The notes: generated by a model not told the origin, from the letters alone. 64,000 bases of DNA from Candidatus Woesebacteria bacterium (GCA_040006915.1 JBDTWD010000002.1:42613-106612), one strand, 5' to 3'. Positions 3,178 through 64,000 are shown, counted from the first letter of the stretch. Numbers and translations are program-made.

Positions 3178-5505
3178 TTATTTTCCTTGCCTATCAGCCT
3201 CAAGTACATCAGCAAGCTCGTCATGAGAGATTATTTTAATCAATTGCTGGGCTTTTTCATGCAGAGCTTCATACCTTGGCTCGAGTTGTTCATCAGTTTC
3301 AGCATCGGTCGCATTCAGCAGGCCTTTGATAAATTGAGGAATCAGACTCAATGTCTTTGTAGATAACGTTCTAGCCCTATCCGTAAGAGCTTCCATTTGC
3401 TGTCGTGCAAGTGCGATACCTGCATCTTTACGGAACTGGGTCAGAGTTGGACATCTTTGTAGGAAATCGAGTAAAAATGCACTGCGACCGCTTTCTCCTA
3501 CAACTAACATATTCCGATTTTGAAGGAAATTACGTTCAACTTCTTCCACCGTAATCCCACCCCCGTTGTAGATAGTTGCTAAGCTTTCGGCCCTTTCTCC
3601 TCGGGCGTTTTTCTCCAAAGCTGCTACAACCTTAAAGAACACTTCTGTTTCATCTCCAAATTTCGGACCGTCAACTAATATTGCATGTGTATGGTTAGGT
3701 TCAAGTAATTCGAGATCAGCAGGTTTTTGAGATGGTTCACCTCTCCAGATTTGAGGTCCTGGACAAATTCCGATTGCCTGAACATCTATACCTGCTGCAA
3801 CTAATTTCTCTCGTACTTTCCCAGCAACTTGAATGTAGCCCGAGTCTGTTCCACCCGTAACCATTACTACATTTTTACCAGCTTTTTCTAATATTTGGAC
3901 ATGCTTTACTAGGCTGTCGATGAGTTTATCTTGTTCTCCACCAGGAGCCGTGTCCATTTCTCCGGCACCCCCGTTAAAAACGAGGACATAATTATATGGA
4001 GAAACTCTCGTCTCTTTATCTATCAGTCCCAGTTCAGCTAACTGGTCTTGAACAGCTGATAAGTCAGCATCTTTCGAAATCTCACGTATCTTTATCGTTT
4101 CTTCCGATTGATTTTCTTTCTTTGCAACTGCTTCCTCTGGTATTCCACTGGGAATATCTGTCATACCATCTCCTTTTTTACTGTCTTGTAATAAGTCTGT
4201 CTGTTTTTTTTGATCTTTTTCTAGCATTCTTAATCGCGCTGTCATAGCTTGATCGACCTCCAACGGCTTTCTATTCTCATCTGGGGTTGTAATTATTTGA
4301 GGTCCTTCTGACATAGATATATCTCCAAATTCCCTTAATACTCGATCAATTTCATTGTACTCTACTCCAAGCTCTTCTCTTTTGCCACTACTTTCAATTG
4401 CTATCTTTGCTTCAACCAACACATTTTGAATTGAGCCAACGATTCGATCAATTGTTTCAGGTCGAACCGTAATACCATATTCTCCTAAGGCAAAGAGGGT
4501 CTCTTTGACGGAATGCTCTGCATACAGTCCCCACAAAGGTCTGAACATTTTCCCTTTACTCCAATCAAATGATCCTTGAATGGGAAGCTTGATGTGACGA
4601 CGGAACAAGTTCACATATCTGTCTTTAAACTTCTCTTGATCAACGATCACAAACTCACCTTCCTTGGTAATATCAGTTGCTCTCCCGAAGAGATCGATCA
4701 AATGAAAAAGCATCCTCCCCCGTTCAATCGCAATTGGATCATCAATGTTCGTTCCCATTTCTTGTTTAAAGGATTGGGTAAAAGCAGCGAATTCTTCCTC
4801 GCGGTACACATCTTCATGTTTTCCTACGATACCGGCCAGAAATCGAACGTCTTCTGTAGTAAGGATCTGTTCATCTCCTTGTCCCAAGGCAACGATTCTC
4901 TTCCCTACTGCGATTTTTTCAAAAATTTCAGCCATCACGTGTTCGTGGTCGGCTTCAATTTGAGCATTCGGGGATCCTAAAAGTTTTATCACATCATGAA
5001 GTGGAGCTGCTGCTTCTGAAAGAAGGAGCATTTGTCGGTTGGAGAGCACACTAACATGAAGTTCACGAAACCTGGCAGACATATCTCGAGCTGCTGCTGC
5101 GGTTTCTTGCAAATGCGCCAGTAACCCCCCATTTTCATTGGCAATGAGCTCAATAAAGACTTTATCTCCCTCATCGTCAAGTACATCAAGCTGGATCTGT
5201 ATACACAGTCCAGTAAGGGCTTCAACAAAATCTTCGCTAACAGGAATTTGCGCTCCTTCCATGCGAAGCCGTTTAATATTCTTTCCCATTTGTCGGCGTG
5301 CCTCCACATTTGGAAAAATAGTTTTTCCTTTTGTGGTGGTACTGGATCGCAAAAGCGTCTGTATGCGTTCTTCTTCTGCTGGAGAATAGCTCGTATCTCC
5401 ATATGTTAGGTGATAGAAAAGTTCCCATTTCGCTTGATGTATTAACTTCGAAGAGGCATCAACTTCTGCAACCATGTCTACTCCCGGCGTTTCTTTTATT
5501 GTCAT
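3178..5505 (-). CDS. Large multidomain protein (775 aa) with a C-terminal SLOG/LOG-like Rossmann domain and an N-terminal ~480 aa of unknown function
   Basis: Residues ~520-690 carry SLOG/LOG-type Gly-rich motifs: VLVFNGGAGE, VVMVTGGTDSGYIQVAGK, IGICPG, ATIYNGGGITVEEV and MLVVGESG (compare the LOG-family GGGxGLMG and PGGxGTxEE motifs). The N-terminal half has no motif I recognise. Confidence 0.6.
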   Translation of the reverse strand: MTIKETPGVDMVAEVDASSKLIHQAKWELFYHLTYGDTSYSPAEEERIQTLLRSSTTTKGKTIFPNVEARRQMGKNIKRLRMEGAQIPVSEDFVEALTGLCIQIQLDVLDDEGDKVFIELIANENGGLLAHLQETAAAARDMSARFRELHVSVLSNRQMLLLSEAAAPLHDVIKLLGSPNAQIEADHEHVMAEIFEKIAVGKRIVALGQGDEQILTTEDVRFLAGIVGKHEDVYREEEFAAFTQSFKQEMGTNIDDPIAIERGRMLFHLIDLFGRATDITKEGEFVIVDQEKFKDRYVNLFRRHIKLPIQGSFDWSKGKMFRPLWGLYAEHSVKETLFALGEYGITVRPETIDRIVGSIQNVLVEAKIAIESSGKREELGVEYNEIDRVLREFGDISMSEGPQIITTPDENRKPLEVDQAMTARLRMLEKDQKKQTDLLQDSKKGDGMTDIPSGIPEEAVAKKENQSEETIKIREISKDADLSAVQDQLAELGLIDKETRVSPYNYVLVFNGGAGEMDTAPGGEQDKLIDSLVKHVQILEKAGKNVVMVTGGTDSGYIQVAGKVREKLVAAGIDVQAIGICPGPQIWRGEPSQKPADLELLEPNHTHAILVDGPKFGDETEVFFKVVAALEKNARGERAESLATIYNGGGITVEEVERNFLQNRNMLVVGESGRSAFLLDFLQRCPTLTQFRKDAGIALARQQMEALTDRARTLSTKTLSLIPQFIKGLLNATDAETDEQLEPRYEALHEKAQQLIKIISHDELADVLEADRQGK

Positions 5506-24179: not shown

Positions 24180-24929
24180 TTATAAAGGTCTCGTTTGCAT
24201 TTCTTCTTCTATAGTACACAATGTTTCCTGTACAGACTGAAACGTCCGTTTTTGCTGTAATCCTACAGGATATAAAAATGACATATAGCGCTCTTGTATA
24301 TGAGCCTGTGTACAGTTCTTTAAAAAGAAAGCATACATCCGCACCCAGAAGCTGCTGATAAACTCAGACAGTTCTTGGCTGGTGAAAATAAGAGTTGTAT
24401 CATCTTGTAAAAGTTGATCTGGAGTAAAGGAAAGATAATCTGAAAGAGTAGTTCTCTTGGTATCTACACTCACGTTGTACATATCTTCCAAATCAACTTG
24501 ATATAAACGATTATCTTTACGAGAAAGCATGGCATTCGTCATTCTGCGGTCTTCTAGAAGAATGCCAAACCGCTCATACAAATACCGCATCTGGTCGAAA
24601 CTCTGTTGCGTAAGTGCGAGAAACTCTAGTGGAGAAACCATTCCCTTTTCAACAAGCTCCGAAATTGTATCTCCTTGAATTTTTTCTAGGGTGACTTCTC
24701 CTTTGGTTTTCGTAGCATGAAATAATTCGTCATCGGGAATGATAAGTTGAGGAACAAAGTCACACAGAAGTCCTAAAATAATATGATTCTTGACTCGTTG
24801 ATATGGTGGATGTCCCGCATAGTGTTCATGAAGAGAATATGAATTGGGAGGTTGCTTCAACTTGGCTGGATCGGCCTTAAAATGATAAATTGAATCTTCG
24901 TTCCATCGTGAATTTGTCCAGATTTCCAT
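24180..24929 (-). CDS. Hypothetical protein (249 aa) inside the pyr operon, between pyrD and pyrE
   Basis: Clean ORF with 8-21 nt spacers to its neighbours. It is not PyrK, as it lacks any Fe-S or FAD motif. ILLEDRR...NRLYQVDLEDM weakly resembles a kinase-like catalytic segment. Confidence 0.5.
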   Translation of the reverse strand: MEIWTNSRWNEDSIYHFKADPAKLKQPPNSYSLHEHYAGHPPYQRVKNHIILGLLCDFVPQLIIPDDELFHATKTKGEVTLEKIQGDTISELVEKGMVSPLEFLALTQQSFDQMRYLYERFGILLEDRRMTNAMLSRKDNRLYQVDLEDMYNVSVDTKRTTLSDYLSFTPDQLLQDDTTLIFTSQELSEFISSFWVRMYAFFLKNCTQAHIQERYMSFLYPVGLQQKRTFQSVQETLCTIEEEMQTRPL

Positions 24930-24937
24930 AATAATAA

Positions 24938-25972
24938 TTAACTATTTTTCCAATGCATAGCTAAATGTGGATTGGCAAACACTCCCACTGCTGACTGCAC
25001 GGCATCCACTCCAAGTGCTAGATACTGATCGATATGCTCGGGCTTAGTAACTCCGCCAATTCCAATGATGACAAAATTTTCCATTTCCAGTTCCTGGGAA
25101 AATTTGACCGCATTTTTCGCCTGTTTCAAAGATAAACCACGGACTGCACTTCCTGATACTCCTGCAGTTGGCCGATTGGGAAAAGCTTCTTTCCCATCTT
25201 TGGTAACTATACTCATTGAGTATGTATTGGTCGAAGAGATTCCAGAGATGATTCCTTTTGCTTGTTTTAGAAAAGTCTTTAACGCTTGCTGATTTTGATA
25301 ATATCCAACTTTGACTAACAACTGTTTGTCTCCGATAATATTTTTTACCTCTCCACATAGCCTGAGTGAGATCTCGATATCTTCATAGATCAATCCTTGT
25401 CCCCCATCGGTATTGGGACAAGCTAAATTCAGTTCAAAAATATGAGCAGTGGTCTCATTGGCAAGCAGCGCTAATCGTTTGGCATCCTCTATTAGGCTCT
25501 CACCTGGTTGTGGAGTACACATCAGTGACAGGATCAGTAGTTTCCCTTCAGGTAATTTAGCAACACAAGTTCCCACATCTTCTTGCCAATATTCTGGTTT
25601 AACGGATTGAATCCCAAAACTATTGGCCATCGTAGTCGTTTCAGCCGTATCAAAAGGAGTAAAACTGGCTTGCGCTTTGGGTAGAACGCTTGGATCAGAA
25701 AACTCTCCCTTTATATCAACATACTGCCAATGAGGGAACGCATTCCCACGCCACTCCAATGAACGTACACTTTTATAGGTAAAAATATCGTATCCAAGCG
25801 TACTCAAAAAAAGGATAAATCGAGAATTAACAGTGAGCGGACAGGCTGCAACGCCGAAAGGCGAATGAATGTTAAAACCTAAAAAAGTACGATGAAGATT
25901 AGCTTTGTCGGTATTCCAAAATGGACCGTAGGCAATGTTTTCCTCAAACGTTTTCGTAATGTCATACAACAT
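24938..25972 (-). CDS. pyrD: Dihydroorotate dehydrogenase (class 1-like, soluble)
   Basis: LNLACPNTDGG active-site region and FVIIGIGGV FMN-binding end. Lies in the pyr operon between pyrC and pyrE. Confidence 0.85.
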   Translation of the reverse strand: MLYDITKTFEENIAYGPFWNTDKANLHRTFLGFNIHSPFGVAACPLTVNSRFILFLSTLGYDIFTYKSVRSLEWRGNAFPHWQYVDIKGEFSDPSVLPKAQASFTPFDTAETTTMANSFGIQSVKPEYWQEDVGTCVAKLPEGKLLILSLMCTPQPGESLIEDAKRLALLANETTAHIFELNLACPNTDGGQGLIYEDIEISLRLCGEVKNIIGDKQLLVKVGYYQNQQALKTFLKQAKGIISGISSTNTYSMSIVTKDGKEAFPNRPTAGVSGSAVRGLSLKQAKNAVKFSQELEMENFVIIGIGGVTKPEHIDQYLALGVDAVQSAVGVFANPHLAMHWKNS

Positions 25973-32125: not shown

Positions 32126-33688
32126 CTATGCTGGATCTTGTTCGTACGGAGTTCCATTCTTGAGCGCATCTTCGGCTTTTTGCAGTTCTAGTCCCACATA
32201 CATCATATGTCCAGGAATACCGGAATAGTTCCAGTCGGAGATCTGCCAGGCAACCTCCTGAGCAACTCGTCCTTCAAAGATTTTCATTGCCGGCCCCCCA
32301 TTGGGTTCAAAAATCGTGGCTCGGATCATTCGGTCGTTCGTTTTAGGCAACTTGCGTAACATTCGCTCTACTGCCATCGGAACGGCTTGTGTCTCGTACC
32401 GCTTTGACCATACATCCCACATTTGTGCGTCACTTTGTTTAATCACTTCAACGACGACATTTCCTCGGGGATCAAATTCGAAGTGAACCTGAGGGGTATA
32501 CCCAAGCTCTCCTTCGTAATGCTTCATGAGAAGGTCATCGACCAAACCGAAATCGTCTGCATACATATGAGCACTATGGGTGATCATGGTTAAAGGCCCC
32601 ATCTGCATTCCAGCACTATCTGCAATATCTTTTTGCAATTTACGTAACGCAAATGTATTTCGCGGCCAGCCATGCACCATATCTTGGCTTCTGAAATGAC
32701 AAGTGAAGAAGAATTTATCGTCTTGAACAGAGCCTAATACCATGGTCAGACACGGCGTATCGCCTTTATTTGCCTCTGCCCAATCACGAACCGGATTAAT
32801 TGTAATTGCGACCATTTTTTTACTGTCTGGCCGATTTTTGAGCAATTTTTTAATTTCATCAATTTGGTTCACGCCTAAATCTTCACGTAAACGTTTACCG
32901 TAGTTATACGCTACCCCAGGGATTTGTCGCGCGGTCATCATTTCTGCGTAGTAGGCTTCAAGCTCAAAGCGTGCAAACGGTAAATATTCTGGGAAATAGA
33001 TATCTTCAGGATTTTCATCAGTAATGACTGCGGTTAAATTCAACACTTCCTTCAAACTATTATCTTTACTGTATCGTGTATGTTTGGGTCTGCCATACTT
33101 TGATATCTCATTTAAAAGTTTAAGCCAGGTCTTTGCAACTTTGGGTGATGAGACACGAAAGCCTGTCTGTTCACTCGGTAACAACTGTACTTTCGGTTCG
33201 CTTCTCGGGAATTCACGACGACGCTTGGCGAATGGTTCAATAGTTTTTTCAGAGAGCTCACGAGCTTTGGCGATAAAATCTGCACCACTCTTGCCCCGAC
33301 AATCAACGACGGCAACCATTTCAGCGAATTCTTTCAAGATTTCATCCGGAAGTTCGGCTTCAATCTCTCCTCTAGCGCCAACGATTCGACGATTCTCATC
33401 CACTCCTTTTTCCACCAACATTTTAAGGGCTTGTCCTGATTGACTCATCTCTGCTCCCCAAATCAAGATTACACGAATGTGAGGATTCGCAAAGATATTA
33501 CGAATCATGGCATTGATCCCTTGCGCAGAATACAAATTACCAATCGTGTTGTACTCCACATCCTTTAGCAACCCCTCAACGGCTTGTCGCTCAGTCCAGA
33601 GGCAGCAAATAGCGAGATGATGTTTAGGATTTTTGACTTTGAGAACGTCTTTATAAAAGAGGGGCCAATTTTTTACATCAATGGGCAT
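32126..33688 (-). CDS. Extended thymidylate-synthase-fold protein (ThyA/dCMP-hydroxymethylase superfamily), 520 aa with large extra segments
   Basis: NQIDEIKKLLKNRPDSKKMVAITINP resembles DQLxxVIxxIKxNPxxRRxIxxAWNP. TPCLTMVLGSV resembles the catalytic PCH..QFYV block. FRSQDMVHGWPRNTFALRKL resembles YQRSxDxxLGVPFNIASYALL. The protein is about twice normal TS length. Confidence 0.6.
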   Translation of the reverse strand: MPIDVKNWPLFYKDVLKVKNPKHHLAICCLWTERQAVEGLLKDVEYNTIGNLYSAQGINAMIRNIFANPHIRVILIWGAEMSQSGQALKMLVEKGVDENRRIVGARGEIEAELPDEILKEFAEMVAVVDCRGKSGADFIAKARELSEKTIEPFAKRRREFPRSEPKVQLLPSEQTGFRVSSPKVAKTWLKLLNEISKYGRPKHTRYSKDNSLKEVLNLTAVITDENPEDIYFPEYLPFARFELEAYYAEMMTARQIPGVAYNYGKRLREDLGVNQIDEIKKLLKNRPDSKKMVAITINPVRDWAEANKGDTPCLTMVLGSVQDDKFFFTCHFRSQDMVHGWPRNTFALRKLQKDIADSAGMQMGPLTMITHSAHMYADDFGLVDDLLMKHYEGELGYTPQVHFEFDPRGNVVVEVIKQSDAQMWDVWSKRYETQAVPMAVERMLRKLPKTNDRMIRATIFEPNGGPAMKIFEGRVAQEVAWQISDWNYSGIPGHMMYVGLELQKAEDALKNGTPYEQDPA

Positions 33689-38082: not shown

Positions 38083-39789
38083 ATGTTGATTCTCATTATT
38101 TTTGCATTCTTAGCTGGAATTGTCACAGTCTTATCTCCTTGTATCTTGCCTGTTCTCCCAATCGTTTTATCTGGAAGTTTAACTGGCGGTAAAAAACGGC
38201 CTTTAGGGATCGTTACTGGGTTTATTATCAGTTTTACCTTCTTTACTTTGCTTCTTTCTGCAATTGTGAAAGCCACTGGTATCTCATCTGAAGTATTACG
38301 TACCGTCTCCATTATCGTCATTGGATTATTTGGCGTCAGCCTCCTAGTTCCCCAAACTCAAATTCTTCTTGAAAAATTGTTCGCTAAAATCTCCGGCTTG
38401 GCTCCTCGATCAACAGGACAAGAAGGTTTTGGCAGTGGCGTGATCATTGGCTTAAGCCTGGGATTACTGTGGACTCCCTGTGTTGGTCCTATCCTTGCAT
38501 CAGTAATCACTTTAGCACTTACCGGCTCAACCAATGCCTCTGCCTTCTTTATCACCTTTGCCTATTCATTGGGGACTGGTCTTCCGATGTTAGCTATCAC
38601 CTACGGTGGACGACAATTGTTACAACGTGTCCCTTGGCTTCTGCGGAATACTGCCACGATTCAAAAAGCGTTTGGCGTATTAATGATTGCCATGGCAATT
38701 GCGCTCTATGCCAATATCGATCGCAAGTTCCAAACTATTATTTTGACCACCTTCCCTAACTATGGAACAGGATTAACAGCAATTGAAAACAATCCTTTAG
38801 TACAAAAAGAATTGGGGAATTTGGGAGCAAATCCAGGGGCGGTTCCGAGCAACTTGTCCGATCAAGGGGCGATTCCGAATCCGACTTTTTCGGGAGGTGG
38901 TACGTGGATTAACTCTGAACCACTTAATTTCAATACAAATTTAAAAGGCAAAGTCGTTCTCGTTGATTTCTGGACTTACAGTTGTATTAACTGTATTCGA
39001 ACACTTCCCTACCTAAAAGATTGGTATGCCAAATACAAAGACAAAGGATTTGTCATCATTGGAGTTCATTCACCTGAATTCGAATTTGAAAAAAATACAG
39101 AGAATGTAACCATGGCTGTGAAAGATTTTGGGATTGAATATCCGGTCGTTCAAGACAATGATCTCCTCATTTGGAACTCATATCAAAATCAATACTGGCC
39201 GGCGCACTACTTAGTTGATAGTCGTGGACACTTACGTGACACCCATTTTGGAGAAGGCGCATATGCAGAAACAGAACGAAACATTCAAGCACTCTTAAAA
39301 GAGGCAGGAGATACATCACTCCCTGAAGTTACTACCAAAGATCCTGCTAGTGGATTGCAATTACGATTAGGAGATCAAATGACTCCGGAAACATATTTAG
39401 GATCAATGAGAGCTCAAAGCTATACTTCTACTGAAAATCCAGACGTTCCATCAATGCAAACGATGTACGACTTTACTGGAACTCTAGAGAACGACAAAGT
39501 CGGGATACGAGGAAAATGGAGCATAGAAGATGAACGAATTACTTCAAACAGTGACTCGAGCACCTTGAGTTTAAACTTCAATGCGGGAAAAGTGTATTTA
39601 GTTTTAGGTGGCAAGAGCAACAAACCAGTGACGATCAAACTTGATGGGAATCGGATAGAGCCTGATATTACTGTAACGATGGACAAAAAATATGATGTGG
39701 TGGATTTGGGTGACAAACCTGGTCGCCATACAGTAGAACTCACCGTTCCATCCGGTATTTCTGCGTACGCCTTTACATTTGGAGAGTGA
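38083..39789 (+). CDS. CcdA/DsbD-type thiol:disulfide transporter fused to a thioredoxin-like (TlpA/ResA-type) domain and a C-terminal beta-rich domain
   Basis: N-terminal membrane domain with SPCILPVLP and a second Cys in WTPCVGP. Thioredoxin-fold region FWTYSCINCIRTLPYL (CxxC). Confidence 0.8.
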   Translation: MLILIIFAFLAGIVTVLSPCILPVLPIVLSGSLTGGKKRPLGIVTGFIISFTFFTLLLSAIVKATGISSEVLRTVSIIVIGLFGVSLLVPQTQILLEKLFAKISGLAPRSTGQEGFGSGVIIGLSLGLLWTPCVGPILASVITLALTGSTNASAFFITFAYSLGTGLPMLAITYGGRQLLQRVPWLLRNTATIQKAFGVLMIAMAIALYANIDRKFQTIILTTFPNYGTGLTAIENNPLVQKELGNLGANPGAVPSNLSDQGAIPNPTFSGGGTWINSEPLNFNTNLKGKVVLVDFWTYSCINCIRTLPYLKDWYAKYKDKGFVIIGVHSPEFEFEKNTENVTMAVKDFGIEYPVVQDNDLLIWNSYQNQYWPAHYLVDSRGHLRDTHFGEGAYAETERNIQALLKEAGDTSLPEVTTKDPASGLQLRLGDQMTPETYLGSMRAQSYTSTENPDVPSMQTMYDFTGTLENDKVGIRGKWSIEDERITSNSDSSTLSLNFNAGKVYLVLGGKSNKPVTIKLDGNRIEPDITVTMDKKYDVVDLGDKPGRHTVELTVPSGISAYAFTFGE

Positions 39790-57136: not shown

Positions 57137-58165
57137 CTAGTCTAGCAGCAACCATCGTTGGTCAGGAATACCTTCCGGCGCCCAGGCAGTCACTGATTCT
57201 TTCAATCCTTTAGGGGTAAAAGTAATCTGCCACCAGCAAATCATTACGTGGTGTTTCGGTGACATCAGGAATTGAGGGCCACCAACTACTTCGAAGCTGC
57301 CAGTTAAAACGACATCCAACTGCGAATCGGAATCGTTGGCGGCGGTACGCACATGGGTTTCACCCCACTGGGCATTGTTATACCCTTTTGCGCCAACGGA
57401 GAGTTGGCACGGAAGTGCTGCTTCACAGGCTATAACGGTTGGAGTTGGTGTCAACACAGTTGTTGGCATAACGGTCGGAGTCGTAGACGAGTCTACAGTA
57501 TGGGAGAATACTCCCCCAGCAATCCATCCGTGACTTCTGTCATTGAGCAGAACTTCGTTCCACTCGTACCCACCGTTGGGTGGATACCAAGTACCGAGTA
57601 AGGTGAATGTACTATCACGTAACACCCTAACAATCACCTTTGCATCGGTATTGTGATCGATATGGACACGCAAACAATCTCGATCCACAATTACTTGTGG
57701 TGTTCGTGTTTGCGTATATTCCTGGCACGGCAAGCTTTGCGGCGTGATTGTTGGAACAGACGGGATTATAGTCGGTGCTGTCTGCGCCTGTGGCATAATG
57801 GTAGGCGTGGAATGATCACAAGTACGAATACAAATGGTCACCGATTCGATTCCACCAAAGGAATTTTGGGCAGTATATGTAACCCACCCTTGATTCATTT
57901 CATTCCATAGCGTTTTGTTTTGGAGTTGACCAGAACGGTGGGAAATAAGTCCACCAGAACCGACACCTCTCCCCGTCGCACAGGAGACAGCTTGAGTCAA
58001 ATTTTCCGACCAAGTAATTTCCCCTTCCAATGCGGTTGTAAGACCTACTTCAGTCATACAACCACCCATATCCCGAAGGGAGTATTGCAGCGAATTCTGC
58101 GCAAAAACCGACGTTACGCTGGCGAATACCAGCGATGAGACGATAAGAGCAAGCTTTCGAAACAT
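57137..58165 (-). CDS. Secreted hypothetical protein (342 aa) with a signal peptide. Paralog of the 58403 gene.
   Basis: MFRKLALIVSSLVFASVTSVFA signal peptide. Shares SCATGR..HRS...NEMN..YSA/YTAQ and a C-terminal GW(I/M)AGG block with the next gene. Confidence 0.6.
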   Translation of the reverse strand: MFRKLALIVSSLVFASVTSVFAQNSLQYSLRDMGGCMTEVGLTTALEGEITWSENLTQAVSCATGRGVGSGGLISHRSGQLQNKTLWNEMNQGWVTYTAQNSFGGIESVTICIRTCDHSTPTIMPQAQTAPTIIPSVPTITPQSLPCQEYTQTRTPQVIVDRDCLRVHIDHNTDAKVIVRVLRDSTFTLLGTWYPPNGGYEWNEVLLNDRSHGWIAGGVFSHTVDSSTTPTVMPTTVLTPTPTVIACEAALPCQLSVGAKGYNNAQWGETHVRTAANDSDSQLDVVLTGSFEVVGGPQFLMSPKHHVMICWWQITFTPKGLKESVTAWAPEGIPDQRWLLLD

Positions 58166-58402: not shown

Positions 58403-59089
58403 TTACAGGGTCACTTTCGAATACCCTCCACCAGCCATCCAACCAGTTGTACCGTCTGGCAACTTGATCTGGTACCAAGGGAAATTACCCGAGGTTAGAA
58501 AGGTAGAGATCCAGGTTAATCGACTGGCGAATGTTGCTCGAGCCAAGATGTTGTTTTTACTGGTATCTGGAGCTTGGCGAATGTTCAAACAATGGACCAG
58601 AACTTGGACAAATGGAGTGTTACTAGCTTCTCCCCCGCGAAACTGACAGTTCAGATTTGACGCAGTTGCTGAGCCTGTGGCTCCACTTGAGCTAGAGCTA
58701 CCTAAAGTAAGACTCGTGCTGGTGCGATGAGAGGCAATGTGAACAACCTGAGATACTCGGTTCCCCTGAATATCTTTGGCTGAATACTCGATGTTCCCAC
58801 AGTTCATTTCGTTAAATTTGTTCTGCTCATCTGGGAGTGTACTGCGATGGAAAAGATCCACATCATCTTTTACCGCTCGTCCAGTTGCACAGGAGCTGGC
58901 ATCAAGATAATGAACATGCCACTTTAAAGGTCCACTTAAGCCGTTAGCTTTCATGCTCACTTCTGTCGTATCGATACTCATCCAAGAACCCGTTACTTCC
59001 AAGTTTCCTTGAGCAAAAGCTGGGACTACAGCTGTCACAAACAGAAATAGAGTCAAGCCAACAATGGAGAGAGCATTCAAAAATTTCAT
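58403..59089 (-). CDS. Secreted hypothetical protein (228 aa). Paralog of the 57137 gene.
   Basis: MKFLNALSIVGLTLFLFVTAVVPAFAQG signal peptide. Same conserved blocks as the neighbouring paralog. Confidence 0.6.
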   Translation of the reverse strand: MKFLNALSIVGLTLFLFVTAVVPAFAQGNLEVTGSWMSIDTTEVSMKANGLSGPLKWHVHYLDASSCATGRAVKDDVDLFHRSTLPDEQNKFNEMNCGNIEYSAKDIQGNRVSQVVHIASHRTSTSLTLGSSSSSGATGSATASNLNCQFRGGEASNTPFVQVLVHCLNIRQAPDTSKNNILARATFASRLTWISTFLTSGNFPWYQIKLPDGTTGWMAGGGYSKVTL

Positions 59090-60014: not shown

Positions 60015-60743
60015 TTATTTTCGCAGCTCGACTGTAGATAGAATTGCGTCAACATCATTTTGATACCCTTTTCCTTGAGGATCCGGAGCGATAAAGGTAA
60101 TATTGAGAGCAGTCTTTGACTCTGAATCTTTCTGAAGAATCAAATACGTTGAACTTCCTAAGCCGCGCAACTCATAGGTAAAACCAAAGTATCCGTTCAA
60201 ACTTGTTTGTCTTTTAGATTGTATGATTTCTGTAGTTCCATCAGCCGTAGAGGTCTGAATGCTTGAGTCAACAAATGCCGCTAAGGAACTATTTTTCAAA
60301 TCAACTGATTCAAATACCATCAGTACTCCATCATAGAGTTCCGTTTGCCCTTTCTGGGTGGCTCCTTTTTTGCTGATGCGAATGTGCTTTGCATCACTGG
60401 TATTGAGAACGTAGTCATTTGGATACAAGAATCCAAACCCACCTTTAGGATCGCTGTAGCTATTACCCCCGGCTTTGAGCACGTTGGTATCAGGATTGGA
60501 CTTGATGAATTGATCCACAGTCGGAATTGGAGCTGTCACCTCTTGAGGGACACTTGTCCCGGTCACCGGAACGTAGGATTTGGTAGATAAATAGTAGAGT
60601 GCGGCACCAACTCCTACCACTGCACCAAGCAAACAAATAATGATTGTGTTTCTCATACGTACAAAAGTATAGAACAATATGATGATGATAGGGTAAGAGA
60701 CTGGTGTCTTCTTGCACAGAAAGTGCCTAGTAGCGGATATCAA
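60015..60743 (-). CDS. Membrane-anchored hypothetical protein (N-terminal TM, extracytoplasmic domain)
   Basis: Hydrophobic N-terminus IIICLLGAVVGVGAALYYL. Overlaps the upstream heme-protein gene by 4 nt. Confidence 0.55.
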   Translation of the reverse strand: MISATRHFLCKKTPVSYPIIIILFYTFVRMRNTIIICLLGAVVGVGAALYYLSTKSYVPVTGTSVPQEVTAPIPTVDQFIKSNPDTNVLKAGGNSYSDPKGGFGFLYPNDYVLNTSDAKHIRISKKGATQKGQTELYDGVLMVFESVDLKNSSLAAFVDSSIQTSTADGTTEIIQSKRQTSLNGYFGFTYELRGLGSSTYLILQKDSESKTALNITFIAPDPQGKGYQNDVDAILSTVELRK

Positions 60744-61342
60744 AACCTATTTTTATTTGCTAAACGAATCCTCAGCCACATAAGCAGACGCATGACAATG
60801 ACGACGGCAATAAAGATCGTTTCCAATAGACTTAGTGATGGGAGTGTTTTCATTCCTCCGTTATACCAAGTCATCCAACGAGCCGATTTGAGGAGTACCA
60901 CATGAGCCGCTACAAATAGCATCGCGATATAGCCAGCTCGTAGAATTCGTCTCCACTTCTGCACTCCAATTCGAACCATGGCCGAGCGACTAGAGATCAG
61001 CGCCATGATACTAAAAATACCTGTGGCGAAAAGGCCTGTCACTGGGGCGGGAGCTACTCTGAGCGCTGAAAAAGACAGTGCGACATGAACGAGAGCAAAT
61101 GCGAATCCGATTAAACCCAACTGTTTTCGATACATTATTTTTGAATCAAAGAGATTAAAAAAATAGGCGAGGCTAGAAAGCCACATCGATAATCCAATAA
61201 GAATAATTGAGGTGTCAGCCATTCCTTTGTTGAGGAGGTTTGGTGTTTTGAGATAACTATTATATCCATAACTGAATCCGTAGATGATGAATCCAAAGAT
61301 CAGTACTTTTAGATAAGGCCAAAGTTCTTTATTTACTTTCAT
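60740..61342 (-). CDS. Ferric-reductase-domain / MsrQ (YedZ)-like polytopic membrane protein (putative b-heme binding)
   Basis: 200 aa with ~6 TM helices. Conserved His in adjacent helices (LIGFAFALVHVALSF and YIAMLFVAAHVVLLK) preceded by Arg, as in the FRD/MsrQ heme ligation pattern. Coupled by 14 nt to the VKOR-DHODH gene and by 4 nt to the next gene. Confidence 0.5.
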   Translation of the reverse strand: MKVNKELWPYLKVLIFGFIIYGFSYGYNSYLKTPNLLNKGMADTSIILIGLSMWLSSLAYFFNLFDSKIMYRKQLGLIGFAFALVHVALSFSALRVAPAPVTGLFATGIFSIMALISSRSAMVRIGVQKWRRILRAGYIAMLFVAAHVVLLKSARWMTWYNGGMKTLPSLSLLETIFIAVVIVMRLLMWLRIRLANKNRF

Positions 61343-62867
61343 ACATTGTTCCTTTTCCGTTGTCGACAGTTTTATATGTTAAGTACTGATTAATTTCTCC
61401 GATCAACTGTGGTCCCTCATAGATCATCCCTGTAATCAGCTGAACAAGATTAGCACCAAGTTTCATTTTTTCTGTCGCATCCTGCGGGGAGAAAATTCCT
61501 CCCGTTCCGATGATCACGAAGCGTTCTTTAAAGTGCTTTTTTGTGAGGATAATCGCATGGTTGGAGCGATTCCAAGTTGGTTTCCCACTGACATTTCCTG
61601 CCCGATCTTTCCACAATGCACGGTCTTGGACGTTGACATCAGGATTATTTTTATCCTTTGTTAGATTTCCAAAGACGACTCCAGCAATTTGATGGTGAGC
61701 TGCAGTAGTGAGAAGTAAAAGTGTTTCTGTATCACTTAAATCGATGGGCATTTTGATAAAAACTGGTTTCTTACTTTTCAGTTTATCCAACCGGCTAAGT
61801 AAACGTTCAAGACGGTCGCCTGTGGTAAAAGGTTGCCCTCCGCTCAAGTTTGGACAACTAATATTGAGTTCATAATAGCTGTGTCGTACATTACTTTGTT
61901 CGAAAAGATAAAACGTTTGCAAAATATCATCAATTTGTGTCATCAAGGTCGTGTACTTCTTGTTTGTACTACCAATACTAATTCCAATTGGGATTGTAAA
62001 GTTTTTATTGGATAGTCTTGCAATGATGACTTTGGCTCCGCTACTTTTGAATCCTTTGTTCACCAACAGTGCTTGTGATCTGGGGAACCTGCTAAGTCTT
62101 GGTTTTGTATTTCCACCATATGGTTCAAGCGTCACGGTTCCAATCGTCGCGAAACCAAATCCGACACTCGGTAAAATGTCTGTGAGCTGCCCATCATAAT
62201 CAAACCCTGCCGACAATCCGACTGGATTAGGAAATGAAATTCCTGCAATTTTCTTTGACAGCTTCGGATGAGAAAAATAAAAAAGAATTTTAGTTAAAAA
62301 GCGTGTGATTGAAAATTTTCCAAGGAAGATTCCTATCTCTGTCATACGATTATGTACAAATTCAGCATCGAGCAAAAAGAAGATTGGTTTACAAATCTGT
62401 ACATAGAAGAAATGAAAGAGATTCCGTTTACGTACAGTGAGAAAAAGTGGAATACAGATTGAAAACAGCAAAAAACTACTTAATGCTGAACCAACACAAT
62501 ACAGGCACCACGCATTCAAAACGAAAGCCATTACGAAAACAAGATAGAGAGAAAAGAGGAAACCACCAGTCGTCAGGACGAGTAAAAAATCTTGTGCTCT
62601 CTCTGAGGCATCAAGAAAAACAAGAATCGCTACGGTTAAAATCGTGGCGTAATACACTATTCCAATTGCAGAGAGTGGTACAGGTCCCACATGTGACCAC
62701 GGGCTGCTCAAAACCCTGCCGCAGTCAAATGGAGGTTGGCACGATGGGACGATCCCAGATAACTCACTCCAAGTCATGTATGACGTATCCAAAAGACCTA
62801 AGAAAGCGATAATCACAATCGCTAGTTTAAAAAACAGAGAATATCGCGGCATTTTTACAGTATACAA
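61329..62867 (-). CDS. Fusion protein: N-terminal VKOR (vitamin K epoxide reductase) membrane domain plus class-2 (membrane/quinone-type) dihydroorotate dehydrogenase
   Basis: VKOR part: loop Cys pair SCQPPFDCGRVLSSPWSHVGPVPLSAIG and active-site CxxC at a TM start (NAWCLYCVGS). DHODH part: class-2 N-terminal helices YVQICKPIFFLLDAEF, GLSAGFDYDGQ, ELNISCPNLSGG, IIGTGGIFSPQDATEKMKLGANLVQLITGMIYEGPQL. Confidence 0.75.
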   Translation of the reverse strand: MYTVKMPRYSLFFKLAIVIIAFLGLLDTSYMTWSELSGIVPSCQPPFDCGRVLSSPWSHVGPVPLSAIGIVYYATILTVAILVFLDASERAQDFLLVLTTGGFLFSLYLVFVMAFVLNAWCLYCVGSALSSFLLFSICIPLFLTVRKRNLFHFFYVQICKPIFFLLDAEFVHNRMTEIGIFLGKFSITRFLTKILFYFSHPKLSKKIAGISFPNPVGLSAGFDYDGQLTDILPSVGFGFATIGTVTLEPYGGNTKPRLSRFPRSQALLVNKGFKSSGAKVIIARLSNKNFTIPIGISIGSTNKKYTTLMTQIDDILQTFYLFEQSNVRHSYYELNISCPNLSGGQPFTTGDRLERLLSRLDKLKSKKPVFIKMPIDLSDTETLLLLTTAAHHQIAGVVFGNLTKDKNNPDVNVQDRALWKDRAGNVSGKPTWNRSNHAIILTKKHFKERFVIIGTGGIFSPQDATEKMKLGANLVQLITGMIYEGPQLIGEINQYLTYKTVDNGKGTMYESK

Positions 62868-62905
62868 AGAAAAACAGCCAAACTGTTGTGATCTTGCTCA
62901 CATTA

Positions 62906-63529
62906 TTACACGTAGTCAAAGAGCGCTTTTCGATCCAGCAACATGATCTCATGTGCATCGACAGAGACTAACTGAAGTTGTTTGAGTGCAGTCAGTTCGC
63001 GAGTAACGGTTTCACGCGAGAGACCCGTCAAATTGGCGAGTTTTTGATGTGTTAGTACAAGGTTTATTGCGTTATCAGATGTCGGAAACCGCTGTGATAA
63101 GGTGAGAAGCGTTTGAACAATAAGCGCTCGAGCGTTACCTTCCATTAAGCTTGCGGTTTTTAGCAGCATGCCGTGGAGTCCTTTGAGGAGGCGAACTGAT
63201 AGTTCATAGGATACTTCTGGGTTCGTTTGCAGCCATGCTTTGACTTCATTGACCGGTGCTTTATAGCCAGTACTGTCTGTCAGAGCCGCAAAGGTATATT
63301 GGTTGGGGATATCTGCCAGTCCATCCATCAGAGGAAAAAAGCTGCCACTTTTATATAAATTTAAACACAACTCTTGCCCACTTTGAGCAATGAAGGTTTG
63401 TTTGACGACTCCATCTTCGAGAAAGAAGATCTGCGAGGCTCGTTCTTCGGCGCGGATACAAATTTCATTGGCAGCTAGTTGGAATGGAGTTTTGCTGTAA
63501 AAGAATTCGGTTATTGGATCAGTTCCCAT
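62906..63529 (-). CDS. Crp/Fnr-family transcriptional regulator
   Basis: N-terminal cNMP-binding-like beta-roll and C-terminal HTH LANLTGLSRETVTRELTALKQ. Confidence 0.8.
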   Translation of the reverse strand: MGTDPITEFFYSKTPFQLAANEICIRAEERASQIFFLEDGVVKQTFIAQSGQELCLNLYKSGSFFPLMDGLADIPNQYTFAALTDSTGYKAPVNEVKAWLQTNPEVSYELSVRLLKGLHGMLLKTASLMEGNARALIVQTLLTLSQRFPTSDNAINLVLTHQKLANLTGLSRETVTRELTALKQLQLVSVDAHEIMLLDRKALFDYV

Positions 63530-63614
63530 CGTTGTATTGTACGCTGCAGGCGCTCGTGATCAAAATCACTAGCTTTCTGTTTTATGATGTGCAATAGTTT
63601 CTACGAGGACAAAT

Positions 63615-64000
63615 ATGAATGTATCGACTAAAAAAGTAGCCATCATCGGGCTCGGAAAAGTTGGGATCACAGCCGCATACGCCATGCTTCTACGAAACAC
63701 TGCAGACGAAATCATCCTCGTCTCTCGGTCCGCTCAAAAAGCTGAGGGAGAACAGCTCGATTTAGAGCATGGACTCACTTTTCTTGAGAACACCCATATC
63801 ACATCCACAGATGATTTCAGTAAGATTGAGGGGGCAAACGTCATCGTCATTACGGCTGGTGAGGCCCAAAAACCAGGACAAACACGATTAGATTTAATTG
63901 GGAGCAATAAAAAAATCATCGAAGAACTTGCTGAGTCGATTCGTCCCTACGTCCAAAATAGTGTTGTGGTGCTCGTTAGTAATCCGGTCGATATATTGAC
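63615..64000 (+). CDS. ldh: L-lactate/malate dehydrogenase family, 3' truncated by the window edge
   Basis: MNVSTKKVAIIGLGKVGITAAYAMLL is an NAD-binding Rossmann motif, with ITAGEAQKPGQTRLDL as the substrate-loop arginine region. The frame is open to the window end and is not in the ORF track because it has no stop. Confidence 0.85.
   Translation, partial: MNVSTKKVAIIGLGKVGITAAYAMLLRNTADEIILVSRSAQKAEGEQLDLEHGLTFLENTHITSTDDFSKIEGANVIVITAGEAQKPGQTRLDLIGSNKKIIEELAESIRPYVQNSVVVLVSNPVDIL

Follow-up and report, generated by a model that had tools for sequence, protein, structure and literature searches.

Bacterial vitamin K epoxide reductases (VKORs), such as the Synechococcus VKOR-Trx protein (3kp9/4nv5) and the enzymes of Mycobacterium tuberculosis and Actinomyces, share a core of four transmembrane (TM) helices with a Cys pair in a loop and a CxxC motif at the start of TM4. 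In the known VKOR fusions, a periplasmic thioredoxin/DsbA-like donor is joined to this core via an extra helix, TM5. Class-2 dihydroorotate dehydrogenases (DHODHs), represented by Escherichia coli PyrD (1f76), the M. tuberculosis enzyme (8ofw), and the human enzyme, combine a flavin mononucleotide (FMN) TIM barrel with the helices alpha1 and alpha2 and with tunnel His and Arg residues; the bacterial enzymes are peripheral, and the mitochondrial enzymes carry a single inert helix. Here we describe a protein in which the same VKOR core and the same DHODH elements occur in one polypeptide. It is encoded on the minus strand, at positions 61329-62867, of a 64,000-nucleotide stretch of DNA from a Candidatus Woesebacteria bacterium (hereafter, the window) and is, as judged from its sequence, a genuine bifunctional membrane enzyme of Microgenomates-group bacteria within the candidate phyla radiation (CPR), its two activities being predicted.

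An earlier note on this DNA had reported no awareness of a described VKOR-DHODH fusion, and we likewise found no publication on one. The literature checked, including a VKOR phylogeny, recent Dsb surveys counting VKOR fusions, and a study of CPR protein families with a discussion of VKOR, contained no mention of it, nor did a 2026 publication listing known VKOR fusions. The literature co-mentions of VKOR and DHODH all concern ferroptosis. Both halves are members of well-known families, and databases already contain the proteins; the architecture itself is apparently undescribed and would surprise a VKOR/Dsb or pyrimidine specialist.

Domains and Topology of the Fusion Protein

The fusion open reading frame (ORF) encodes 512 amino acids (aa) from a TTG start. 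An identical deposited protein, P0001, from a Candidatus Woesebacteria metagenome-assembled genome (MAG), starts at the ATG at 62852, five codons further in, and has 507 aa. Its database name is "quinone-dependent dihydroorotate dehydrogenase", an annotation that hides the VKOR half behind the DHODH name alone. The fusion was also found, identical, in an independent Logan assembly.

Residues 16-137 (62457-62822, minus strand) matched the Pfam VKOR family PF07884 with 88.2 bits (gathering score 27.5), and a phmmer search of the PDB aligned the N-terminal half with Synechococcus VKOR (4nv6/3kp9, E 2e-8 to 3e-7); the NCBIfam VKOR equivalog models matched at sub-cut-off scores. The Pfam DHO_dh family PF01180 matched residues 203-496 with 180.1 bits (gathering score 27). 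A class-2-type DHODH was assigned to residues 155-509 (61341-62405, minus strand), for which the NCBIfam class-2 equivalogs scored above their cut-offs (TIGR01036, 225.8 versus 200; NF003652, 274.6 versus 267). Since this match begins at residue 155, it takes in the N-terminal extension of class 2. Among solved structures, the best alignments of the DHODH half were with the class-2 enzymes of M. tuberculosis, E. coli, and human, and a Foldseek comparison of this part with class-2 DHODHs, including the full-length M. tuberculosis structure 8ofw, gave target-normalised TM-scores of 0.84-0.91. The Pfam and NCBIfam scores thus agree with the earlier reading of one ORF with a VKOR domain and a class-2-type DHODH domain.

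An AlphaFold2 (AF2) model of the fusion was obtained with a pLDDT of 93.5 and a pTM of 0.85. In this model, the TM helices of the VKOR domain span residues 8-36, 65-84, 89-117, and 122-143; the outward loop contains a short cap helix (49-53). A linker of three residues leads from TM4 to the membrane-surface helices of the DHODH, alpha1 (147-163) and alpha2 (168-184), which form the quinone tunnel and are followed by the FMN TIM barrel. Basic residues lie at the N-terminus and after TM4 (RKR), that is, at the cytoplasmic helix ends. The VKOR termini are on the same side of the membrane and the C-terminus enters an FMN enzyme with cytoplasmic substrates, which places the VKOR cysteines outside and the DHODH inside. 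An outward CxxC and a cytoplasmic DHODH, as proposed before, therefore agree with the four-helix model, the C-terminal FMN enzyme, and the positions of the basic residues. The architecture in turn fixes the topology of the VKOR, whose C-terminus is tied to a cytoplasmic flavoenzyme.

Conserved Residues and the Catalytic Base

The best 120 database homologues listed, which are 50-64% identical and come from many independent assemblies, were aligned, and every one of them had the two domains. The putative outward electron-shuttle cysteines of the loop, C43 and C49 (62721-62741, minus strand), were found in 120/120 homologues; their spacing is C-x5-C (CQPPFDC), not the CX6C given in the earlier note. 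The active-site motif C121-L-Y-C124 at the outer end of TM4 (62496-62507, minus strand) was likewise found in 120/120. In the VKOR part, C43, C49, S55, C121, and C124 were unchanged across the alignment, and in the DHODH part the same was true for H172, R260, C338, and the FMN/orotate motifs. H172 and R260 align with the quinone-site region of M. tuberculosis DHODH; from these conserved tunnel residues alone we infer a quinone as the predicted acceptor of the DHODH.

These alignments bear on the idea that the VKOR domain is a mere membrane anchor, or a scaffold holding a quinone for the DHODH, and has no thiol-disulfide function. Eukaryotic class-2 DHODHs do have an N-terminal TM anchor, and the three-residue linker lets TM4 set the quinone tunnel at the membrane. 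However, none of the four redox cysteines varies among the 120 aligned homologues, nor does Ser55, and where the genes are split, a stand-alone VKOR with the same cysteines stays in the cluster. We therefore regard a purely structural VKOR as very improbable.

The NISCPN catalytic loop (residues 335-340; 61848-61865, minus strand) places Cys338 at the position of the class-2 Ser, where it aligns with the second Ser of NVSSPN in M. tuberculosis DHODH. NISCPN was present in 81/81 loci, fused and unfused alike. A Cys as catalytic base is the hallmark of class 1 and a Ser that of class 2, with rare fungal exceptions (PMC8520639). The fusion thus has the scaffold, the tunnel, and the profile scores of the class 2 to which the earlier note assigned it, but not the Ser base, and because of Cys338 the domain is described here as combining the scaffold of class 2 with the base of class 1 rather than as a canonical class-2 enzyme. 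The few fungal class-II enzymes of the Cys type occur in anaerobic or microaerobic fungi, where they allow pyrimidines to be made in the absence of respiration; free flavins are used by one of them, and another needs the Cys for anaerobic function (PMC8520639). The invariant Ser-to-Cys change in the CPR proteins is a bacterial parallel to these respiration-independent enzymes.

Distribution and Linkage of VKOR and DHODH

In a scan of GTDB with one genome per species, 460 relatives were confirmed by tblastn, and the best 80 loci were taken for taxonomy. These belong to Pace-, Woese-, Roizman-, Gottesman-, and Cerribacteria, all of the Microgenomates group of the CPR. Fused and split forms were counted over 81 loci and adjacent genes over 84. 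The two domains formed one continuous ORF in 69/81 loci. In four loci (L027, L051, L052, and L079), VKOR and DHODH were split into adjacent genes in different frames; the two ORFs overlap in L051, L052, and L079, which were inspected, and L027 was classified by script. Six loci had separate genes within a single cluster, and VKOR was undetected in two, one of which lies on a truncated contig. Over the larger set, 82/84 loci had a VKOR no more than 10 kb away from the DHODH of this type.

The four loci with adjacent genes in different frames would suit an assembly or frameshift artefact joining neighbouring genes. Against this stand the continuous ORF in most loci, the presence of both domains in all 120 listed homologues, the independent Logan assembly, and the AF2 model, in which the two domains are packed confidently. 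An artefact is thus rejected as an explanation, with a probability that we consider negligible.

The unfused clusters were variously organized. L061 (8163-11083) has the order VKOR, L-lactate dehydrogenase (LDH), flavodoxin, and DHODH, with overlapping stops and starts and a divergent Crp-family gene alongside. In L075 (4951-7445), the order is VKOR, LDH, and DHODH. L045 (9989-13740), L049, and L050 contain DHODH, Crp, and VKOR followed by LDH, with a flavodoxin gene next in L045 and L050. It was also observed that in unfused lineages (L061, L075, L045, and L094, 1591-5527) LDH, often accompanied by a short-chain flavodoxin, lies between VKOR and DHODH and is translationally coupled there.

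In a rough neighbor-joining tree of DHODH domains with a provisional E. coli outgroup sequence, the unfused forms sit among the fused ones in at least four places, indicating repeated fission or fusion with the linkage retained. Joint function of VKOR and DHODH is strongly supported, and the linkage retained by the unfused genes is the strongest evidence for it. In a search of a representative library with residues 1-200, the nearest VKORs were mostly stand-alone proteins of ~150 aa, and the fusions fell into a few clusters at 50% identity.

Dozens of third-party annotation (TPA) MAGs with a CPR-type locus are titled "uncultured Pseudomonadales" or "Gammaproteobacteria" bacterium (among L004-L083), and single records with such a locus are titled Limisphaerales, Methylococcaceae, and Vitreimonas. 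Because their neighborhoods are the same as those of named Pace- and Woesebacteria records, these taxonomy labels look wrong.

Proposed Electron Flow

A lack of quinone synthesis is generally reported for CPR genomes, and the organisms are described as fermenters without an electron-transport chain. One CPR bacterium has been suggested to scavenge quinone (PMC6031116), and CPR genomes commonly encode an MdbA-like oxidase together with VKOR, a pair proposed to act in pilin folding (PMC6744442). CPR bacteria nevertheless retain two quinone-dependent enzyme types, a VKOR for the disulfides of pili and envelope proteins and a class-2-type DHODH for pyrimidines. That the two are fused, or share one operon when split, points to a shared local electron economy.

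In the model, the CxxC is at the outer end and the FMN domain at the inner end of the 22-residue TM4. Direct passage of electrons between the redox centers is therefore not expected and a mobile carrier would be needed, for which a quinone is the probable mediator. The direct, quinone-free coupling considered in the earlier note is disfavored, since His172, Arg260, and the alpha1/alpha2 tunnel are kept and the redox centers are a membrane apart. The quinone mediator, the flow direction, the sink, and the partner thiol oxidase are assigned here from the known roles of the two families, so that the following steps are predictions by analogy.

We favor, at a probability of about 0.45 and hence tentatively, two parallel quinone reductases acting on one local, probably scavenged, membrane quinone. 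The DHODH head would pass electrons from dihydroorotate via FMN to the quinone at the inner face, yielding orotate. The VKOR head would pass electrons from an extracytoplasmic MdbA/DsbA-like thiol oxidase via its cysteines to the quinone at the outer face, and would thereby support disulfide-bond formation. The fusion would supply the DHODH with a four-helix anchor and hold the two quinone users together and co-expressed. For re-oxidation of the quinol, the best candidate in the source genome would be g2, a putative heme protein encoded directly downstream and probably co-transcribed; alternatively, g2 might deliver electrons derived from flavin to Fe(III), Cu(II), O2, or a similar acceptor on the outside.

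Several observations weigh against two parallel quinone reductases. Two consumers of oxidized quinone gain nothing thermodynamically from being fused, and fusion is usual for consecutive steps. The dihydroorotate/orotate couple lies at about -260 mV; without a sink it would keep the quinone reduced, and VKOR would be blocked or reversed. Since g2 is absent from ~95% of the fusion loci, most members have no candidate sink. Within ~6 kb around the system in the 81 loci, no Trx/DsbA-like partner, quinone-biosynthesis gene, or quinol oxidase recurs; the LDH and flavodoxin genes embedded in the clusters have no explained role in such a scheme; and the separation of FMN and CxxC is deduced from helix length alone. 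Among the annotated ORFs of the window, we also found no oxidative Trx/DsbA partner, quinone-biosynthesis gene, or quinol oxidase.

A possible but doubtful alternative is a transmembrane redox loop within one polypeptide, in which a captive quinone would move between the inner DHODH tunnel and the outer VKOR pocket. Dihydroorotate oxidation and outside thiol/disulfide chemistry may then be electron source and sink for each other; in the most plausible version, external disulfides may be the terminal acceptor for pyrimidine synthesis, and via a linked g2, external metals or O2 could be acceptors too. If true, such a loop would replace a respiratory chain in the CPR in minimal form and would be controlled, along with lactate fermentation, by a Crp-family protein.

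Electrons could also flow strictly in series from DHODH to VKOR, the quinol made by DHODH being re-oxidized by the VKOR CxxC working in reverse, with outside disulfides, or metals or oxidants reduced via thiols, as acceptor; the protein could equally be a dihydroorotate-powered exporter of reducing equivalents. This would suit the fusion and a linkage that survives fission, both typical of consecutive steps, as well as the lack of a visible quinol oxidase near most loci. The reaction would be downhill overall, so that a quinone without a sink would be poised reducing: a DsbA-type disulfide lies at about -120 mV and dihydroorotate at about -260 mV. The Cys base is shared with the respiration-independent fungal class-II enzymes, which use non-respiratory acceptors (PMC8520639), the second DHODH-like enzyme of the genome (see below) could release the fusion from a purely biosynthetic role, and the regulation of the fusion appears to be shared with LDH, by which the cell also disposes of electrons. 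However, no physiological reverse reaction of VKOR or DsbB is known, the CPR VKOR and MdbA-like oxidase appear to serve oxidative folding (PMC6744442), and the electron flux of pyrimidine synthesis would demand a large external supply of disulfides. No partner gene was found. In addition, a reductive pathway is already encoded at 38083-39789. Flow in series from DHODH to VKOR is the main rival of the favored scheme, but we consider it unlikely.

The ORF at 38083-39789 (plus strand) encodes 568 aa in which a CcdA/DsbD-TM domain is fused to a TlpA/ResA-like thioredoxin and a C-terminal Thioredoxin_10 domain. Such a CcdA::Trx-like fusion would provide a reductive thiol route to the exterior and bears on the direction in which VKOR works.

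The electron acceptor of both disulfide formation and dihydroorotate oxidation in the CPR could be tested with one recombinant protein. The fusion is also a natural scaffold for the movement of a quinone between sites on opposite leaflets.

Downstream Genes

The gene g2 (60740-61342, minus strand) encodes a protein of 200 aa with six helices, and its start overlaps the fusion stop by 14 nt, as noted before. The 4-nt overlap reported between g2 and the next gene, g3 (60015-60743, minus strand), depends on an unsupported TTG start of g3, which gives 242 aa; the gene call on an identical contig starts g3 at the ATG at 60656, giving 213 aa and a gap of 83 nt to g2. g3 is a membrane-anchored extracytoplasmic protein without a family match, and no homologue was found in the 83 related loci scanned.

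The earlier note had seen in g2 an MsrQ/ferric-reductase-like protein. Its own score against the Pfam family Ferric_reduct (PF01794), 17.8 bits, is under the gathering score of 28. The superfamily assignment is upheld by two invariant histidines of the g2 family, which align with the heme ligands of STEAP2 (E 8e-5), and g2 has the six-TM fold with His heme ligands on two helices. About half of 43 g2 homologues have a precomputed PF01794 match, and the JGI label is YedYZ heme subunit. On these grounds, g2 is a predicted minimal single-heme (heme b) transmembrane reductase, STEAP/YedZ(MsrQ)-like. Neither the window nor any of the examined g2 loci had an MsrP/YedY gene beside g2.

Adjacency of g2 to the fusion was found in 4/84 fusion loci. 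From the side of g2, the two are more often together: among the ~20 metagenomic g2 loci of at least 4 kb, six (~30%) had VKOR and DHODH within 6 kb, one of these being an unfused cluster of g2, crp, and VKOR followed by LDH and DHODH. In a further genome, crp and g2 are divergent from the fusion. The co-occurrence of the fusion with MsrQ-like genes thus holds from the g2 side but not from the fusion side, and g2 is a recurrent accessory, not a core part. With g3 in 0/83 loci, a conserved three-gene operon was rejected, and the proposal of a dedicated electron-transfer module of three genes was not borne out.

In L088 (4562-5690), a flavodoxin gene was observed to stop 4 nt ahead of the start of a g2 homologue. 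The pair suggests a two-gene route from a cytoplasmic flavin to a transmembrane heme.

Flavodoxin also enters into the reverse of the series considered above, in which VKOR would oxidize the extracytoplasmic thiol oxidase and reduce the quinone. The electrons of the quinol would return through the tunnel to FMN, and at the active site with the Cys they would be taken up by fumarate, free flavin, flavodoxin, or orotate as a soluble acceptor, so that the DHODH would be the terminal reductase for disulfide-bond formation. A flavodoxin gene is in or beside the VKOR/DHODH clusters in 5/84 loci and directly upstream of the g2 homologue, and the fumarate-using class-1A enzymes also have a Cys base. 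Free flavins serve the Cys-type class-II enzymes of fungi, whose evolved hosts carry fumarase mutations (PMC8520639). However, DHODH-bound FMN lies at about -240 to -330 mV (PMC8520639), making the step from quinol to FMN ~200 mV uphill; orotate as acceptor would be uphill from thiols, and no fumarate-metabolism genes were linked in the 81 loci. An electron flow from VKOR to a soluble acceptor is accordingly improbable.

Crp-Family Regulator, LDH, and Neighboring Genes

A Crp/Fnr-family gene (62906-63529, minus strand), whose product has the Pfam cNMP-binding and HTH_Crp_2 domains, lies 38 nt upstream of the fusion. Orthologues of it adjoin the fusion or VKOR/DHODH clusters in 14/84 loci, and the protein is probably a regulator of the fusion. 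Divergent from crp, the 5' part of a gene for an NAD-dependent L-LDH, with its first 128 codons (63615-64000, plus strand), reaches the end of the window, which cuts the gene; on an identical contig it continues past this point. A full-length copy on L084 scored 340 bits against TIGR01771 (cut-off 303.55). LDH adjoins VKOR/DHODH in 15/84 loci, which form one clade that includes the window.

The window contains exactly two matches to GTGA-N6-TCAC. One Crp-type palindrome, GTGATCTTGCTCAC (62888-62901), is located after the stop codon of crp and ahead of the start of the fusion; the other, GTGATCAAAATCAC (63556-63569), is located in the divergent ldh/crp promoter region and overlaps a -35-like hexamer. 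The same box was found 33-65 nt upstream of the fusion in seven loci (L001, L004, L006, L007, L008, L060, and L084), against a background of 0.03 per kb. Given the boxes at both promoters and their recurrence in these loci, the fusion and LDH are probably under one control, and the Crp-family regulator, the fusion, and the divergent LDH would probably form a predicted lineage-specific regulon. In the favored scheme of two parallel quinone reductases, the gene unit under Crp-family control would comprise ldh in one direction and crp, the fusion, and g2 in the other.

No exact GTGA-N6-TCAC box was found in the unfused clusters. A GTAA-N6-TTAC variant, seen by eye and without statistics, precedes VKOR operons or the gene for DHODH in three unfused loci: upstream of DHODH in L045, in both intergenic regions of L048, and at 8100-8170 in L061.

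Across the 81 loci, the recurrent neighbors were an S-adenosylmethionine (SAM) methyltransferase (37 loci), an Elp3-like radical-SAM protein (34), RecQ (27), VIT1 (24), MgsA (24), and MazG (22). The methyltransferase gene lies directly upstream of the fusion with tight spacing (e.g., L052, 9104-9982; L002, 5191-5949); it is usually preceded by the Elp3-like gene, MazG, RecQ, and MgsA, and the VIT1 iron-transporter gene lies downstream. The methyltransferase was considered as a MenG/UbiE quinone methylase and rejected, there being no UbiE/MenG match. Because it adjoins the Elp3-like gene, tRNA-related synteny is more likely, and these recurrent neighbors are most simply explained as lineage synteny.

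Other genes of the window were noted in passing. A pair on the minus strand (57137-58165 and 58403-59089) encodes secreted proteins with signal-anchor N-termini, the second with a bacterial SH3 domain; by eye, the two share a short segment with a Cys (SCATGR) and may thus be paralogs that act at the surface and contain disulfides. The ORF at 3178-5505 (minus strand) encodes 775 aa with a TRPM-type prokaryotic SLOG/LSDAT domain and might contribute to nucleotide sensing or to a conflict system.

A Second DHODH-Like Gene in the pyr Cluster

The pyr cluster of the window comprises pyrB, pyrC, a DHO_dh-like gene, an ORF of 249 aa, and pyrE, with pyrF nearby. A second, soluble DHODH-like gene, as expected from the earlier note, is thus located between pyrC and pyrE (24938-25972, minus strand), though it is divergent: the product of 344 aa, with the motif LNLACPN and a Cys base, matched Pfam with 57 bits and was far under the cut-off of all NCBIfam PyrD models. 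The source genome therefore probably has two DHODHs, a statement that does not extend to the fusion family as a whole.

The earlier suggestion that the fusion is probably not the biosynthetic DHODH does not follow from this. The family of the second protein is small and CPR-only, with 85 clusters, and many fusion-bearing genomes may therefore depend on the fusion. The two enzymes could be isozymes for different conditions, with a Crp-family protein controlling one of them.

The 249-aa ORF (24180-24929, minus strand) is wedged between the DHO_dh-like gene and pyrE, a position that suggests a partner subunit of the DHODH. As a PyrK subunit it was rejected, since it had no family match and inspection found no Fe-S or FAD motif. 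Within the surrounding nucleotide-metabolism region (tmk, upp, tdk, dNK, pyr genes, guaA, SHMT, and FolD), the ORF at 32126-33688 (minus strand) encodes 520 aa with the unusual architecture of an MtrA-like domain (tetrahydromethanopterin methyltransferase subunit A), a partial thymidylate synthase domain, and a PterinBD-DUF4346 domain.

Comparison with Known Systems

The logic of thiol, quinone, and acceptor proposed here is the same as in anaerobic E. coli, where electrons pass from DsbB/VKOR to menaquinone and a terminal reductase. In contrast to that route, no recognizable terminal reductase or oxidase lies near the fusion, and g2 is present in a minority of loci. g2 itself differs from MsrQ and STEAP in having neither an MsrP/YedY partner nor a fused NADPH/FAD domain and, unlike them, has VKOR/DHODH, Crp, or flavodoxin as its recurrent neighbors.

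The fungal enzymes SjUra9, DbUra9, and ArUra9 have the same class-II scaffold with a Cys base and likewise belong to non-respiring organisms or conditions (PMC8520639). They are eukaryotic and without a VKOR, and ArUra9, which uses free flavins, has lost its N-terminal domain, whereas the CPR enzyme keeps the full tunnel domain. The known class-2 DHODHs introduced above differ from the fusion in the catalytic base, which is Cys338 here and not Ser, and in their attachment to the membrane. In the known VKOR fusions, the added part is a thiol-redox donor on the periplasmic side. In the Woesebacteria protein, there is no Trx domain, nor is a Trx-fold gene adjacent, and TM4 is followed by a cytoplasmic flavoenzyme, itself a quinone reductase by family, which is thereby joined to a four-helix protein with a full catalytic set.

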